In this document: positions 6,012 to 10,623 of the stretch, in pieces
Layout of the letters: every line of letters begins with the position of its first letter
Position numbering within the stretch: the first letter of the stretch is position 1
Virus record (IMG/VR): IMGVR_UViG_2541047783_000005
Length of the DNA: 45,972 nt
Direction: 5' to 3' (one strand)
From: a virus
Lineage: Duplodnaviria > Heunggongvirae > Uroviricota > Caudoviricetes
Notes under the pieces: generated by a model
Told to the model about the DNA's origin: nothing
Database searches by the model: none
What the model saw: the letters and a program-made list of their open reading frames with translations, nothing else
Position numbers and translations under genes: made by a program

Positions 6012-6419
6012 TTATTGATGCTTGTTGCGTTTGCGAGCCTCTAATAGCTCGGTGAACAGGCGATTAAAATTCTCAACGCGGGCGCGGAGTTCGCTGAGTT
6101 GTGCTTGTTGCTCTGATTTAGGAAGTGCGCGATACAAACGCAGCATCTCTAACTCATCTTCCGATAAGTCTAAGGCACTATCGAGTGAAACAGGGGGAGC
6201 TGGTGTTTTGTCCTCGTCGCCAAACAGTATCCAGGTTGGTGAACATTGCAATACCTCGGCGAGGCGATGCAAATTTTGCCCGCGCGGGGCTGTATGGTCA
6301 CTTTCCCATAATGAAATTGATGAGCCAGATACGCCAGCAGCTTTGCTTAAACCGTTTTGACTTAAACCTACCTGCTTACGTCTTTCTCTAATGCGTTGAC
6401 CTAAAGTTTTCTCGTTCAT
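6012..6419 (-). CDS. dicA: DicA-like HTH (XRE-family) repressor, no peptidase domain
   Basis: 135 aa from internal Met (MNEKTLGQRIRERRKQVGLSQ...); central LQCSPTWILFGDEDK motif; divergent from a Cro-like gene. Confidence 0.8.
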   Translation of the reverse strand: MNEKTLGQRIRERRKQVGLSQNGLSKAAGVSGSSISLWESDHTAPRGQNLHRLAEVLQCSPTWILFGDEDKTPAPPVSLDSALDLSEDELEMLRLYRALPKSEQQAQLSELRARVENFNRLFTELLEARKRNKHQ

Positions 6420-6496
6420 ATTTAGATATCTTAATAACCCTTGACTTGAGATTCCTTGAGTGATTAGCATTGAGAAAACTCAATACTGGAGGTGCG
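6420..6496. promoter_or_regulatory. dicA/dicC divergent promoter-operator region
   Basis: 77-bp intergenic region with TTGACT at 6441-6446, repeated TTGAG pentamers, perfect palindrome ATTGAGAAAACTCAAT at 6469-6484, and GGAGG RBS before dicC. Confidence 0.55.
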
Positions 6497-6724
6497 ATGT
6501 TTAAATCAGACGTAATTAATTTTTACGGTACGAAAGCCAAAGTAGCGAAAGCTGCTGGCGTTGACCCATCTGCTGTTTCTCAATGGCAAGAGCTGGTTCC
6601 TGAAGGTCGCGCGATGCGTCTACAGGAGGCATCTGGCGGCGAGCTTCTGTATGATCCCAAGGTTTATGACGAATATCGTAAGACGAAGCGGGCGGGGCGG
6701 TTGAACAATGAAAATCACTCCTGA
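6497..6724 (+). CDS. dicC: DicC / Cro-like small regulator
   Basis: Internal start MFKSDVINFYGTKAKVAKAAG...; C-terminus ...EGRAMRLQEASGGEL.YDPKVYDEYRKTKRAGRLNNENHS resembles DicC. Confidence 0.75.
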   Translation: MFKSDVINFYGTKAKVAKAAGVDPSAVSQWQELVPEGRAMRLQEASGGELLYDPKVYDEYRKTKRAGRLNNENHS

Positions 6725-7229
6725 ACAGGCTCGTGAGGCTCTGGATGCCTGGATATGTCGACCAGGAATGACACAGGAGCAGGCGACGATATTAATCACT
6801 GAAGCATTCTGGGCTTTGAAAGAGCGCCCGAACATCGATGTTCAGCGTGTCACAGATGAAGGTGGCGCGGTTGATCAGCGAGCGCTTGGCGTTAATCGAG
6901 TGAAGATATTCGAACGCTGGAAGGCTATCGACACCAGGGATAAGCGTGAAAAGTTCACGGCGCTAGTGCCTGCAATTATGGAGGCTATCCGGATTAATGA
7001 TTTCAGGTTGTATCGTGAAATTAGTGACGGAAAAAGCATCACGTACATGATCGCCGGGTTAAACAAAGAATATGGCGATGTGGTGGAGTCCGGACTGCTT
7101 TTTGCTGATCCTGCCGTAGTGGATCGTGAAACTGACGAACTTATAGAAAAAGCAATTGCTTTCAAACTTGCGTATCGACAGCAATACCAACAAAAAGCTG
7201 GATGGAATTATGAGCCTTCTTTTTGCTGA
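6708..7229 (+). CDS. Hypothetical early-operon protein (173 aa)
   Basis: ORF overlaps the dicC stop and the downstream start; no motif I can assign. Confidence 0.45.
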   Translation: MKITPEQAREALDAWICRPGMTQEQATILITEAFWALKERPNIDVQRVTDEGGAVDQRALGVNRVKIFERWKAIDTRDKREKFTALVPAIMEAIRINDFRLYREISDGKSITYMIAGLNKEYGDVVESGLLFADPAVVDRETDELIEKAIAFKLAYRQQYQQKAGWNYEPSFC

Positions 7230-8175
7230 ACGCCCACTGGTTATAAACACACAGCTTGCGATGAAGATTGGCTTAAATGAAGCCATTGTGTTGCAGCAGT
7301 TGCATTACTGGTTGAGAGATACCAATTCCGGCATGGAATGTGATGGTGTTCGCTGGATTTACAACACAACGGAACAATGGCTGGAACAGTTCCCATTCTG
7401 GTCAGAGTCAACGTTAAAGCGCGCGTTTGCAAGTCTGAAAACGCTGGGGCTTTTGCGTTGTGAAAAGCTCAATAAATCAAAGCGCGATATGACCAATTTC
7501 TACACGATTAACTATGGAAGCGAGCTTTTAGATGATGGCAAATTGAGCGAATCCATCGGTTCAAAATGCGCCGCTCCATCAGGTCAAAATGACACGATGG
7601 AAGAGGTCAAAATGAAACGCTCCATTGGTTCAAAACGACCCAATGTCATCGGGTCAAAATGGCCCGATGATCCTACAGAGAATACAACAGAGATTACTAC
7701 AGAGAATAAAAACACTTTTCGTCCGGAAGCTTCGCAACCGGACCCGCAGACGGCTGAACAGGATTTTTTAATCCGGCACCCTGGCGCAGTTGTGTTTAGT
7801 GCGAAAAAACGCCAGTGGGGTAGCCAGGAGGATCTGGCGTGTGCGCAGTGGATATGGGGGCGGATCGTGGGTCTCTACGAACAGGCCGCCAGTGATGATG
7901 GCGAGATCATGCGACCAAAAGAGCCTAACTGGACTGTCTGGGCCAATGATGTGCGCACAATGCGGATGCTGGATGGCAGAAGCCACAGACAAATTTGTGA
8001 AATGTTTGGTCGGGTACAGCGGGATCCATTCTGGGTAAAAAACATCATGAGCCCGTCAAAGCTCCGCGAAAAATGGGACGAACTGGTCATCCGCCTGGGG
8101 CGTTCACCTGTACAGCGTTGTGTTAATCATATTTCTGAACCGGATACAGAAATTCCGCCTGGTTTCAGAGGATAA
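7210..8175 (+). CDS. Putative replication initiator (O-like), origin iterons embedded in the gene
   Basis: N-terminal winged-helix-like segment (LAMKIGLNEAIVLQQLHYWL); five IGSK-type peptide repeats that correspond to DNA iterons; position downstream of cro-like gene. Start taken at ATG 7210. Confidence 0.6.
   Translation: MSLLFAERPLVINTQLAMKIGLNEAIVLQQLHYWLRDTNSGMECDGVRWIYNTTEQWLEQFPFWSESTLKRAFASLKTLGLLRCEKLNKSKRDMTNFYTINYGSELLDDGKLSESIGSKCAAPSGQNDTMEEVKMKRSIGSKRPNVIGSKWPDDPTENTTEITTENKNTFRPEASQPDPQTAEQDFLIRHPGAVVFSAKKRQWGSQEDLACAQWIWGRIVGLYEQAASDDGEIMRPKEPNWTVWANDVRTMRMLDGRSHRQICEMFGRVQRDPFWVKNIMSPSKLREKWDELVIRLGRSPVQRCVNHISEPDTEIPPGFRG
7559..7663 (+). repeat. Five direct iterons (GGTYCAAAAYG) at 22-26 bp spacing, followed by an A-rich tract; candidate phage origin
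   Basis: Copies at 7559, 7583, 7606, 7628, 7654; then ACAGAGA-type A-rich repeats at 7675-7720. Confidence 0.6.
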
Positions 8176-8215: not shown

Positions 8216-8617
8216 GTGGCAAAAGTTTTTACACAAGAAGAGCGGGAAAAAATTAAAGGGCAGGTGGTGGAACTCGTGCGCCAGAGCGGTCGTGAGACGT
8301 TACGGCAACTGGAAGCTAAAACAGGTGCGACTAGATATCTGATGAGCGTTCTTGCCAGAGAGCTGGTAGCCAGTGGCGATGTATACAACTCCGGCTACGG
8401 GTTATTCCCGTCTGAACAGGCGCGTAAGGACTGGCAAAACGCCCGCAAAAAACTCTCGAGGGCAAAGGTGAAGAAAACAGCTGTGGTTGATCCGGACCTT
8501 ATCTGGTCGTTACCTGATGGAGAAATACGTCGCTACGACAGTCGCCTAAACATAATCTGTCGCGAGTGCCGGATGAGTGAAGTTATGCAGCGCATACTGG
8601 CATTTTATCAGGGATAA
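8216..8617 (+). CDS. Hypothetical protein (133 aa), GTG start
   Basis: ORF with strong AAGGGGGA RBS just upstream; no recognisable motif. Confidence 0.45.
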   Translation: MAKVFTQEEREKIKGQVVELVRQSGRETLRQLEAKTGATRYLMSVLARELVASGDVYNSGYGLFPSEQARKDWQNARKKLSRAKVKKTAVVDPDLIWSLPDGEIRRYDSRLNIICRECRMSEVMQRILAFYQG

Positions 8618-8835: not shown

Positions 8836-10623
8836 TTAAGTCTGAGCCTCACTCTCTTGGCCATAAGTGGCTTGCCAGTATCTCGCCGTAGGGTTCATTA
8901 GAATGTGCAATACAAGCCACCATGCAAAAATGCAGGGAGGTTGATTGTAGTAACCGGCAGGCACATATCCGTGAGCTAGTTGATTTCGTAAATCACCATA
9001 GATTTTATCTACCAGTAAGGCCTGAAGATTGCCAATTATGTCTACGCCGAAAGCTTCAATAATCAGTGGATTATCTAGTAATCCCTTGAGTCCATTTCGC
9101 TCTTGCGAACCGTCCCCGTGAAGCTGCGATGGTTCCTCACCTTTAATTTTAGCCACATATCTCAGACTATTTTCGATCTGGGGAATCAACACGTGGCATG
9201 CCGTCATAAAATCTCCATTGAAACCGCAAACCATACCCTTGATGAAAAACTCTTCATGCCCAAACGGGATGAAGGGATGATTGATGAACATATCGCGAAA
9301 AAACGCCTCCGAGATTGGATATTTCATTGTGATCTCATCTGTAGCAGGAATAATTTGCCCAGCTACTGCCAACTCATGGTCGATACGCATTCTCGTCATC
9401 ATTATGGGCCAAATAACTGCCCCATTTGCATCATCAATCCCCAATCCTGCGGGTATGCGAGCAAGTGTCATTCCCTCATGATCAATATGTGTTGATCCAA
9501 ACATCCAAGCTATGCTGTTGGCCTTTTGTTCTATTGCTTGAGCCTTAAGTCTCTCAATGCTGGTTGGCCGACAGACCAGCATCGCAAGTCTGAAAACCAT
9601 ATCAAACATATCTCTTCCGACTACCCGACTCTTGGCTTGATGGACAATCTCACTAATATCTTGAGGGGGAGACTGAAGGATAGACATCTGGTGACGGGAT
9701 TCGATTTGGTAATCACGCATTTCTTCATACAGCGCAAGACGTTCTATTCGGGTTCCTGGAATATTAGCCAGTGCTTCAATAGCATTCTGCATGCAGGCTG
9801 CCGAAATCATACCGCCATCTTGGAATTTTGACTCTTCCAGATGTGTATCGGCAAGAAGCCGCCAGAATTCAAACTGTGTATCTCTGTCACAGCACCTATT
9901 CGCAATCGTGATTGCGGTTTTACAGGCATCGACGGCAAATGAAAATAATTTTTGAGCCAGATAGTTTTTTGTCAGAAACAGGAGTTCCTGGGCAATAAAA
10001 GATGGCTCACTCACTTTACAGTCGATATCGAGTTGCAGGAGTCGCAGCGGATAAGGTGAATCGCCTTGTTCTCTGGTACGTTCATACTCTGCTAGTAGAT
10101 GTGCCGAAAGCTGATCAAATTCATCCCTGAAATCAGTATTCTTTCGAAAAAAACAACACAGCCTAAGCGCACGCTCTAGGCGTTCTAAAGCACTAACCCA
10201 CGTCCCTTGCGATGTCATAATAGCTATACTGGACGCATAATAAGCACGGACTGCCAGCAAAGGAAAACGGATTCCACCAATTTTACGAACCCAAAGTGTA
10301 TCAGCAATACGAGCTTGAAGTTCGGGTAGCTCTATCGTCGGGCAAAATTGAGAAAGTACCTCCAGCGACAACCCGTTAATGTCATCCGGAATTGCAGATC
10401 TACCTTGGCTGCTTTGAAAGCACGGACCAAATGGTACCTGTGGATTTTCGGGACGAAAGTGAAAACCGCAAATATGGGTTAGCAGTCTTATCTCCGCTCT
10501 TCCATCACCTAGGCTAGAAAGATACTTTGTGATATCAAAGCAGGTAACTGGCAGCTTACTCTGGATTAAGGGGGATAAATCAATAGTGTTAAGTTCGTCG
10601 AGGCTGATATTAATATCGTCCAT
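8836..10623 (-). CDS. 595-aa cargo protein with C-terminal HEPN-like Rx4HxY motif (candidate abortive-infection or defence RNase)
   Basis: Long uninterrupted minus-strand ORF opposing the flanking phage genes; AAGGTG RBS; C-terminal GDLRNQLAHGY motif (encoded at about 8965-8997); no Walker A motif; region looks AT-richer than the structural genes. Confidence 0.7.
   Translation of the reverse strand: MDDINISLDELNTIDLSPLIQSKLPVTCFDITKYLSSLGDGRAEIRLLTHICGFHFRPENPQVPFGPCFQSSQGRSAIPDDINGLSLEVLSQFCPTIELPELQARIADTLWVRKIGGIRFPLLAVRAYYASSIAIMTSQGTWVSALERLERALRLCCFFRKNTDFRDEFDQLSAHLLAEYERTREQGDSPYPLRLLQLDIDCKVSEPSFIAQELLFLTKNYLAQKLFSFAVDACKTAITIANRCCDRDTQFEFWRLLADTHLEESKFQDGGMISAACMQNAIEALANIPGTRIERLALYEEMRDYQIESRHQMSILQSPPQDISEIVHQAKSRVVGRDMFDMVFRLAMLVCRPTSIERLKAQAIEQKANSIAWMFGSTHIDHEGMTLARIPAGLGIDDANGAVIWPIMMTRMRIDHELAVAGQIIPATDEITMKYPISEAFFRDMFINHPFIPFGHEEFFIKGMVCGFNGDFMTACHVLIPQIENSLRYVAKIKGEEPSQLHGDGSQERNGLKGLLDNPLIIEAFGVDIIGNLQALLVDKIYGDLRNQLAHGYVPAGYYNQPPCIFAWWLVLHILMNPTARYWQATYGQESEAQT

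Follow-up and report, generated by a model that had tools for sequence, protein, structure and literature searches.

Gene content of the replication module

The window (the entire 45,972 bp stretch of viral DNA analyzed here) contains an immunity and early-right region with cI-, Cro- and YdaT/cII-like genes, followed by an O-like replication initiator gene and a DUF977 gene (Table 1). The initiator is 321 aa long, and the identical 966-nt coding sequence is called by RefSeq in strain LR-51. Searches of Pfam and NCBIfam assigned no family to this protein, apart from an NCBIfam match in its tail. The AlphaFold2 (AF2) model suggests that a disordered linker is flanked on both sides by folded domains. 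The N-terminal domain is modeled with a pLDDT of 74–91 over aa 11–110, and its best Foldseek matches in the PDB are winged helices, including those of the plasmid initiators 4pql, 5kbj and 4pt7, with weak E-values (0.01–0.15) and a probability of about 1; neither BLAST against lambda O, which detected no similarity before aa 147, nor Pfam produced a hit for this domain. By contrast, the C-terminal domain (pLDDT 77–95) is readily aligned by BLASTP with aa 135–270 of lambda O (34% identity over 148 aa, E=3e-27) and contains the conserved core motifs PNW..WAN..RLM..FW; in the Foldseek search against the PDB, only the N-terminal domain was matched and nothing useful was obtained for the C-terminal one.

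The 133-aa gene that comes next had been described in the original prediction as unknown and as preceding an opposing gene. The order of genes is as predicted, the opposing gene encoding a 595-aa protein, but the product is recognizable: it belongs to DUF977, phrog_142 is annotated as "Ren-like exclusion protein", the C-terminus matches lambda Ren, and the N-terminus is predicted to bind DNA (phrog_2391). The absence of a P-like or DnaC-like gene downstream of the initiator, also part of that prediction, holds: DUF977 is the next gene, and tblastn searches with Escherichia coli DnaC, Rac YdaV, lambda P and DnaB produced nothing credible across the whole window.

Table 1 Features of the replication module and its immediate context.
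Feature	Coordinates	Strand	Basis or comment
cI-like repressor	6012–6470	-	Immunity context
pR-like promoter	6441–6470		Immunity/early-right context
Cro-like gene	6470–6724	+	Immunity/early-right context
YdaT/cII-like gene	6708–7229	+	Early-right context
O-like replication initiator, 321 aa	7210–8175	+	phrog_391 "replication initiation O-like", E=3e-92
N-terminal domain, aa 1–110, presumed iteron-binding winged helix	7210–7539	+	AF2, Foldseek
Sixth iteron unit, degenerate, upstream	7531–7553		In register with the array
Linker, aa 114–180, predicted disordered; codes through the iterons and the A-rich tract	7549–7749	+	AF2 pLDDT <50
Iteron array, 5 units, 23 bp, core G[GT]TCAAAA[TC]G	7554–7669		Repeat search
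A-rich tract, candidate DNA-unwinding region	7670–7725		Three 12-nt repeats CTACAGAGAATA at 7673–7711
C-terminal helical domain, aa 181–298, lambda O homolog	7750–8103	+	BLASTP, AF2
DnaT-like C-terminal tail QRCVNHISEPDTEIPPGFRG, aa 302–321	8113–8172	+	Identity to DnaT
DUF977/LygF/Ren-like gene, 133 aa	8216–8617	+	PF06163, E=6e-27; phrog_142, E=2e-44

Iterons and the A-rich tract within the initiator gene

The repeat search delineates five iteron units (7554–7576, 7577–7599, 7600–7622, 7623–7645 and 7647–7669) that are spaced by 23, 23, 23 and 24 bp and occupy codons 115–153 of the initiator gene. Five iterons had been predicted at this place; the consensus proposed for them, GGTYCAAAAYG, is matched exactly by only two of the five units, and the spacing is 23–24 bp instead of the proposed 22–26 bp. 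The refined core is found in five exact copies within 103 bp and once elsewhere when both strands of the 45,972 bp are searched, against 0.66 copies per window expected by chance, and none of 100 shuffled sequences contained six or more copies; this specificity is lost entirely once a single mismatch is tolerated. Two relatives of the initiator (L221 and L128) contain a good copy of the core at the position of the degenerate sixth unit. The core is surrounded by arms of the general form CATCNG..CNGATG, a partial dyad that is clear in units 4 and 5 (CATTGG..CCAATG and CATCGGG..CCCGATG, respectively). The A-rich tract that was predicted to follow the iterons is indeed present as three short repeats; the tract is moderately A+T-rich only (about 58–60%; GC content of about 0.40–0.42), with an AT skew of at most 0.43.

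The iteron cores retain their positions in the gene and their spacing in relatives with 68–75% protein identity. In comparisons with these relatives, third codon positions are 80–86% identical in the iterons and 88–100% identical in the A-rich tract, compared with 49–51% in the N-terminal domain and 36–43% in the C-terminal domain, which suggests that the DNA as such is under constraint. Furthermore, among the relatives, the iterons stay associated with the N-terminal domain: L128, in which this domain is 75% identical, has the same iterons and yet a different C-terminal region, whereas other N-domain families come with other internal repeats, one of them (L029) with lambda-type iterons. The lambda-like arrangement of an origin inside the O-like gene, as originally proposed, is thus upheld by the homology of the C-terminal domain, the position in the gene and in a linker predicted to be disordered, the association of the iterons with the N-terminal domain and the conservation of synonymous sites.

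DnaA-mediated recruitment of the helicase was considered as well and rejected, given that there is no cluster of DnaA boxes and that the lone relaxed match, at 8227, is at the chance level.

A DnaT-like tail at the C-terminus of the initiator

The tail of the initiator is identical to aa 160–179 of E. coli DnaT in 14 of 20 positions, including the motif SEPDxxIPPGFRG, and to the end of Rac YdaU in 13 of 19 positions. The tail was not among the features in the original prediction. The match to DnaT was also recovered by NCBIfam and by a sequence search of the PDB; the NCBIfam DnaT model scores 16.3 bits on the initiator, against a cut-off of 201, with aa 302–321 alone contributing to the match. 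The SEPDxxIPPGFRG tail is invariant in DnaT orthologs across many Enterobacterales. A scan of contigs for the tail says little on taxa outside Enterobacterales because 69 of its 120 rows are chance matches in unrelated phyla. Within the initiator group, 13 distinct DNA versions of the tail yield pN=0 versus pS=0.35, and the tail is conserved in the loaderless and loader-containing sets alike (pN/pS of 0.15–0.33), although for the last seven codons of the tail, by which the viral contigs were chosen, conservation is partly built in.

Other initiators, namely, YdaU and those of a different type (L057), possess the whole DnaT C-terminal domain, with 40–63% identity. The host genes dnaT and dnaC are adjacent, with dnaT immediately upstream, and ydaU and ydaV are likewise adjacent; YdaV is 50% identical to DnaC. 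Apart from the note on DopC considered below, our literature searches uncovered no paper in which the DnaT tail is linked to phage initiators of the ydaU or O type; modules consisting of an initiator only may be covered in a 2006 review on the replication modules of phages.

Short and long forms of the module

The junction of the initiator gene with DUF977 (hereafter, the short form) is also present in the deposited phages HannyBb, mEp460_ev081 and PhiR42_1 and in 1587 of 5426 complete E. coli genomes (29%). About as common is a long form (1360 of the 5426 genomes), in which a cassette of a DnaC-like gene and a DUF1627 gene is inserted between the two. Thus, in L097 and L125, where the N-terminal domain of the initiator is 95% identical to that in the window, a gene for a YdaV-like ATPase begins at +7 nt and is followed by DUF1627 and then DUF977. 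The complete 45-kb genome of HannyBb, one of these deposited phages, which are considered viable on the basis of their records, encodes no homolog of DnaC, YdaV, P or DnaB. The relatives with 68–75% identity, found in E. coli, Citrobacter and Salmonella, have neither a loader nor DUF977.

The original prediction left room for an incomplete module and called for a comparison with homologous prophages that might reveal a lost loader gene. Such a comparison does recover a DnaC-like gene at this site: 2 of the 9 loci in the cluster to which the initiator belongs have one, which makes the loader a cassette that is optional and not always absent. The recurrence of the short-form junction in phages and bacterial genomes, together with the loaderless state of the 68–75% relatives, speaks against the view that the module is incomplete and that the absence of a loader reflects a local deletion. 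The short-form module without a phage loader is common and evidently working.

Tail type tracks loader type

Across the viral contigs, 85 loci encode an initiator with the DnaT-like tail; a DnaC-like gene comes next in 40 of these and no loader in 45, "none" being defined as no homolog of four reference proteins within 3.5 kb, and P or DnaB follows in none. Conversely, P follows at all 69 loci with a lambda-type tail, a set that serves as a control and is not a diverse sample inasmuch as the alignment search with the C-terminal domain retrieved near-identical lambda O loci only. These large counts are not independent because the phages are mosaic and related; the independent sample is 5 versus 5. 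This diverse sample of initiators with the same C-terminal domain consists of ten single look-ups of representatives of 50%-identity clusters: P comes next in all five cases with a Trp-type tail and in none of the five with a GFRG-type tail (one DnaC-like gene and four without a loader; one-sided Fisher test, approximately 0.004, calculated by hand). Some of the loci scored as "none" may still encode a loader of an unrecognized type, although annotation of nine independent contexts with Pfam revealed no such gene. Thus, the type of the tail is associated with the type of the loader: the GFRG tail occurs with a DnaC-like loader or none, and never with P. The same tail is present on many unrelated phage initiators that are followed either by a phage paralog of DnaC or by no loader.

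Proposed host helicase recruitment and its alternatives

By analogy with lambda, the segment 7531–7725 would serve a lambdoid prophage as its origin of replication, located within the linker-coding part of the initiator gene. Under the same analogy, the N-terminal winged helix of the initiator would bind, as lambda O does, the five or six 23-bp iterons with their dyads, and the nucleoprotein complex formed on the iterons would destabilize the adjoining A-rich tract. Given that the short-form module is complete and has no phage loader, the helicase is likely to be the host DnaB, delivered by the host DnaC. At the origin, the DnaT-like tail would dock either the DnaB-DnaC complex or a loader of the DnaC type (a binding partner that we infer), with the phage-encoded copy of DnaC, the YdaV-like protein, being an optional extra. 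Taken together, the sequence comparisons favor, by a modest degree of confidence, a functional origin whose initiator recruits the host DnaB-DnaC, probably via the DnaT-like tail. Direct recruitment of host DnaC/DnaB had been raised, as a hedge, in the original prediction and gains indirect support from the pairing of the tail with a DnaC-type loader or with none.

A broader proposition, which we advance tentatively as the more doubtful one, is that SEPDxxIPPGFRG is a portable docking peptide for a DnaC-type loader or DnaB-DnaC that is common to DnaT and at least 10 unrelated families of enterobacterial phage initiators. If this were the case, the tail would be the missing contact through which DnaB-DnaC is handed from DnaT to the restart primosome; it would explain how a large class of lambdoid phages does without any loader gene; and the host dnaT-dnaC operon would look like a domesticated phage module of the ydaU-ydaV type. 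Copied repeatedly by phages and tracking loaders of the DnaC type and not of the P type, the tail is a concrete candidate for the DnaT contact that is open to mutagenesis. The reading with host DnaB-DnaC predicts that short-form phages, unlike lambda, depend on the host dnaC, and bears on the interpretation of prophage replication modules and on the competition of phage and host over the helicase. Since lambda is the textbook case of an origin within the initiator gene, the repeat array by itself is unremarkable. What stands out more is the absence of a loader from a lambdoid module that is very common and in which the initiator ends like DnaT.

An unlikely, but not far-fetched, alternative is that the tail mimics DnaT in replication restart, that is, docks PriA/PriB, so that the origin-bound initiator nucleates a PriA-type preprimosome that loads DnaB-DnaC. 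A 2026 paper on the preprimosome proposes that DnaB/DnaC are recruited in restart by DnaT, through its N-terminal domain and not the tail, in a manner stated to be unknown, whereas the C-terminal domain of DnaT sits on PriA via a conserved hydrophobic interface in the sole solved complex that contains DnaT (PMC13377028). Compatible with such docking, the tail is hydrophobic (IPPGF), and the entire DnaT C-terminal domain is carried by the YdaU- and L057-type initiators. The initiator examined here, however, has the tail alone, without the three-helix bundle, and residues 160–179 are not named as the PriA interface in the available text of that paper (PMC13377028); more generally, the text of the DnaT structure papers states no contacts of these residues, and an earlier study linked aa 154–179 only to cooperative binding of single-stranded DNA. 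Docking on PriA would also fail to account for the complete absence of P alongside the tail and the frequent presence of a paralog of DnaC.

Direct contact of the initiator with DnaB, through either the lambda O-type C-terminal domain or the tail, with the host DnaC acting as a generic, undocked loader, appears improbable. Several plasmid Rep proteins bind DnaB. Both the absence of a loader gene and the resemblance of the N-terminal fold to the winged helices of plasmid initiators are in line with this possibility, which, however, would not predict the exclusion of P. Moreover, wherever this C-terminal domain comes with a Trp-type tail, P accompanies it, so the body of this domain alone does not make a loader unnecessary.

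We assign a very low likelihood to the possibility that the module is a deletion remnant, in which the ydaV-like and DUF1627 genes have been lost, leaving a prophage that cannot replicate alone. The close relatives L097 and L125 with exactly these genes between the initiator and DUF977, and the abundance of the long form in E. coli, are what a deletion would lead one to expect. Against it, the identical short junction recurs in deposited phages, including the complete loaderless one, and in more than a quarter of the E. coli genomes; strong constraint persists on the iterons and the tail in loaderless lineages; and a loader is likewise missing from more distant relatives, in which the downstream context differs.

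Two further alternatives hardly merit consideration. The repeats could be protein-coding only, with SIGSK and GQND motifs and no role as DNA, and the peptide encoded by the array, SIGSKCAAPSGQNDTMEEVKMKRSIGSKRPNVIGSKWP, is in fact repetitive; but this peptide is predicted to be disordered and itself varies, while synonymous sites are far more conserved than in the flanking domains, and the dyad symmetry, the period of 23 bp, not divisible by 3, and a location matching that of the proven lambda origin all speak for the DNA. Equally remote is DUF977 as an unrecognized helicase loader replacing P or DnaC: for all its position directly after the initiator and its predicted DNA-binding N-terminus, we reject this candidate because DUF977 co-occurs with the DnaC-like gene in the long form and so is present in loader-containing and loaderless modules, resembles Ren, which in lambda, as DUF977 in the long form, comes after the loader (P), and is missing from other loaderless relatives.

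Comparison with known replication systems

The closest parallel is with lambda. In both cases, the iterons, followed by an A-rich tract, lie inside the initiator gene, beginning at nt 345 here and at nt 349 in O; dyad arms surround a TCAAAA[CT]G center; the initiator combines an N-terminal DNA-binding domain, presumed in the present case, with a flexible linker and a homologous C-terminal domain; and a Ren-like gene is located downstream. The differences are substantial as well. The N-terminal domain shows no BLAST or Pfam similarity to that of lambda O; the module has five or six units of 23 bp in place of four units of 18–19 bp, with other arm sequences; the P gene is missing; and the protein ends in a DnaT-type tail (IPPGFRG), where lambda O has LDLTNTDWIYGVDL.

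With iteron plasmid initiators, in particular the winged-helix Rep proteins of the RepA_N type (4pql, 5kbj), the likeness consists in the best structural matches of the N-terminal domain. Such initiators bind iterons and depend on host helicase-loading factors. The initiator described here differs from these in that the fold match is weak (E of 0.01–0.1) and unaccompanied by sequence similarity, the origin is within the gene, and the context is lambdoid.

The ydaU-ydaV-ydaW module of Rac shares with the present one the DnaT-like tail and an early region with YdaS/YdaT-like genes, but the cassette of the DnaC-like ATPase and DUF1627 that characterizes Rac and the long form is missing here. YdaU itself has a different architecture, with a DUF1376 N-terminal domain and, at the C-terminus, a DnaT-type domain (40% identity with DnaT aa 111–179) in place of a lambda O-type one.

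A published precedent for a chimera of this kind is DopC (Brezellec et al. 2017, PMC5509034), an O-like protein that has been domesticated and carries a C-terminal motif of DnaT. DopC, however, is chromosomal, has neither the lambda O C-terminal domain nor iterons, and pairs with the P-like DopE in bacteria that lack DnaC (PMC5509034), whereas the present initiator retains the lambda O domain and the iterons, resembles DnaT in the tail alone, and is not accompanied by P.

Finally, the initiator and E. coli DnaT share the last 20 residues, and the similarity ends there: the initiator has none of the N-terminal domain, the acidic PriB-binding linker or the three-helix bundle that binds single-stranded DNA in DnaT. 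The two proteins would also differ in where they act: DnaT functions at abandoned forks, with no sequence specificity, whereas the initiator, by analogy with lambda O, would be directed by the iterons to the origin.

Early right region of the prophage

The sequence of the window is that of a lambdoid prophage of E. coli. In strain LR-51, the same element adjoins rspB and has genes for integrase, exonuclease, immunity, Q, lysis, head, and tail; in strain SCU-482 (NZ_CP053247.1) the otherwise identical region is split by an IS5 insertion (the match falls into two aligned pieces and covers an annotated IS5 transposase). The initiator had no match in Pfam. RefSeq and phage records start it at an ATG, its first 20 nt lying within the 3' end of the YdaT-like gene; longest-ORF calling takes a TTG at 7156 (339 aa; both starts fall within 7156-7229), and because our analysis of viral contigs used this longer start, the initiator is listed there as 339 aa.

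The opposing "cargo" gene has a match in PADLOC to PDC-S39, a candidate defence system of a single gene (E=8e-103). Among relatives, the cargo between the Ren-like gene and hokD varies (a 449-aa minus-strand gene in mEp460_ev081, methyltransferases in HannyBb and PhiR42_1, other genes in L030), and this slot looks like a moron or defence hotspot.

Features of the early right region
Feature	Position	Strand	Remarks
cI-like repressor	6012-6470	minus	
Cro-like gene	6470-6724		
YdaT/cII-like gene	6708-7229		
O-like initiator	7210-8175	plus	321 aa; phrog_391, E=3e-92
Degenerate sixth iteron unit	7531-7553		
Iteron units, five	7554-7669		23 nt each
CTACAGAGAATA repeats, three	7673-7711		12 nt each
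DUF977/LygF/Ren-like gene	8216-8617		
Opposing 595-aa gene	8836-10623	minus	DUF7380 + DUF4209

The initiator gene contains an origin-like array

The original prediction placed an iteron array and an A-rich tract within the O-like gene, as in lambda. A repeat search recovered both, with five units spaced 23, 23, 23, and 24 nt; the predicted consensus, GGTYCAAAAYG, fits only two of these, and the predicted spacing of 22-26 bp narrows to 23-24. Within 103 bp, the core G[GT]TCAAAA[TC]G is matched exactly five times, and a single further match lies elsewhere in the window (0.66 expected by chance; none of 100 shuffles reached six), and dyad arms are clear in units 4 and 5. The tract 3' of the array has a GC content of about 0.40-0.42 and an AT skew of up to 0.43. 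No DnaA-box cluster was found.

In ori-lambda, four dyad iterons around TCAAAACG are followed by an A-rich tract, from nucleotide 349 of gene O; the window array has the same architecture and starts at nucleotide 345 of the initiator gene. The segment that it encodes (aa 114-180) is predicted by AF2 to be disordered (pLDDT <50) and lies between two confidently predicted domains, a winged-helix N-domain and a helical C-domain; the nearest folds of the N-domain, with weak E-values, are winged-helix DNA binders including the plasmid initiators 4pql, 5kbj, and 4pt7. In the relative L128, the N-domain is 75% identical and the C-terminal region is different, yet six GGTCAAAATG units are present at 23 bp; the internal repeats differ in other N-domain families, L029 for example having lambda-type iterons. 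By sequence comparison, the iteron repeats travel with the N-domain. Across relatives at 68-75% protein identity (E. coli L221, Citrobacter/Salmonella L222, and L128), the core positions in the gene are identical, and third-codon-position identity to the window is higher in the iterons (80-86%) and the A-rich tract (88-100%) than in the N-domain (49-51%) and the C-domain (36-43%), which points to constraint on this DNA beyond its coding role. Thus, four lines of evidence, namely architecture, linker position, co-travel with the N-domain, and third-position conservation, agree that the array is a replication origin, as the likeness to lambda had suggested; we infer iteron binding and firing.

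The CTACAGAGAATA repeats encode the peptide TENTTEITTEN. Their third codon positions are 100% conserved in L221 and L222 (about 70% protein identity) and 88% in L128, more than those of the iterons; the repeats could be a DNA unwinding or host-factor binding site.

The loaderless module is widespread

The lack of a loader gene downstream of the initiator, noted originally, extends to the whole window, where tblastn with E. coli DnaC, Rac YdaV, lambda P, and DnaB produced no credible homologue. That the module is incomplete, as also proposed, is unlikely: the initiator-DUF977 junction recurs in HannyBb (97% identity), mEp460_ev081, and PhiR42_1 and, as a contiguous match, in 1587 of 5426 complete E. 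coli genomes, and more distant relatives, with different downstream contexts and no DUF977, are likewise loaderless. The complete HannyBb genome yielded no credible loader or helicase homologue with the same four queries, and its annotation lists no helicase, loader, or primase. There is also a long form: in L097 and L125, which have the same initiator (N-domain 95% identical), a YdaV-like ATPase gene comes at +7 nt and precedes a DUF1627 gene and DUF977. This form occurs in 1360 of the 5426 genomes. Because both forms occur, the DnaC-like gene belongs to an optional two-gene cassette and was not uniquely lost here. DUF977 can be dismissed as a substitute loader, being present in both forms and missing from other loaderless relatives.

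A DnaT-like tail tracks the loader type

The initiator is a chimera of a lambda-O-type C-terminal domain (residues 147-294; 34% identity, E=3e-27) and a DnaT-like tail: over the final 20 residues (QRCVNHISEPDTEIPPGFRG) it shares 14 with the C-terminus of host DnaT, and Rac YdaU ends likewise. AF2 predicts the tail to be disordered, as a short linear motif would be. When viral contigs were scanned for IPPGFRG with a stop codon directly after it, 120 loci were recovered; all 119 scored matches are C-termini of initiator-like ORFs, with at least 10 unrelated N-domain families. In a genome scan, the tail does not vary among the DnaT orthologues of many Enterobacterales genera; beyond DnaT, the true matches are prophage initiators, the remainder being chance matches. 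Within the group sharing the C-domain of the window initiator, the 20 terminal codons occur in 13 distinct DNA versions that differ only synonymously (pS 0.35, pN 0); the search pattern had set the last seven of these codons and left thirteen free. In the preceding domain, pN/pS is 0.10.

Genes following the initiator, by tail type (the counts for 85 and 69 loci are not independent)
Tail	n	P	DnaC/YdaV-like	DnaB	No loader
DnaT-like (untruncated loci, at least 1.5 kb downstream)	85	0	40	0	45
Lambda-type (...LDLTNTDWIYGVDL)	69	69	0	0	0
Trp-type, independent (P0136, P0138, P0261, P0212, P0160)	5	5	0	0	0
GFRG-type, independent (P0131, P0137, P0252, P0134, P0129)	5	0	1	0	4

The ten independent representatives, drawn from 50%-identity clusters, share a common C-domain (65-73% identical to that of the window initiator) and differ in their tails; therefore, loader type follows the tail rather than the domain body (tail type against P, one-sided Fisher probability of about 0.004, calculated by hand).

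The lambda-O-type C-domains followed by a P gene end in another short, Asp/Trp-rich motif (LDLTNTDWIYG, ELDWDNTDWADSL, HWNSAEAWENTL, DFSDTTWADKIDW; in P0136, P0138, P0142, P0160, P0212, P0261, and lambda O aa 271-299), possibly the P-specific equivalent of the GFRG tail.

Some phage initiators (viral contigs L012, L057, and L066; YdaU) carry the whole DnaT C-terminal domain, beyond the tail: identity is 40% between YdaU and DnaT aa 111-179 and 63% between the L057-type initiator and DnaT aa 86-179. In the host, dnaT (L005, E. coli, 1979-2518) lies directly upstream of dnaC, as does ydaU of ydaV in Rac (L006, 5120-6730), and YdaV is 50% identical to DnaC. Given this adjacent DnaC paralogue and the DnaT C-domain on phage initiators, the host dnaT-dnaC operon resembles, at the sequence level, a domesticated ydaU-ydaV-type phage module. 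In the loaderless L057 and L066, an ORF of about 155 aa, RuvC-type resolvase-like by eye only (MAAVLGIDPGCSG...), lies at +115 to +585 after the stop codon.

Possible routes of helicase loading

Use of the host loader, part of the original prediction, is the best-supported reading; the recruitment step itself we infer. The initiator would bind the iterons and open the A-rich tract, as lambda O does, and host DnaB-DnaC would be brought in via the DnaT-like tail; long-form phages would supply their own DnaC copy at the same docking site. The main rival is that the tail docks on PriA or PriB, so that the phage uses the restart primosome, because the literature puts the DnaT C-terminal domain on PriA, with the N-terminal domain suggested as the recruiter (PMC13377028), and ties DnaT aa 154-179 to cooperative ssDNA binding (PMC4132743). 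According to PMC13377028, how DnaT recruits DnaB/DnaC is not known. A further rival is direct contact of the initiator with DnaB. The host-loader reading now has a specific, testable handle, the DnaT-like tail.

Comparison with known systems

The repeat array alone is ordinary: as an origin, the module shares the structural features of the lambda arrangement and would work like ori-lambda in binding and firing. The N-domain of the initiator is not a member of the lambda O family, nor is the initiator a DnaT, of which the tail alone matches (16 bits against a cut-off of 201). More unusual is the combination of a loaderless module with a DnaT-mimicking tail; a literature search of incomplete coverage found no paper on such tails of phage initiators or on their link to loader type. 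The DnaT C-terminal motif has been noted once before on an O-like protein, the domesticated DopC, which, unlike the window initiator, has neither iterons nor a lambda-O domain and is partnered by a P-like protein (PMC5509034).
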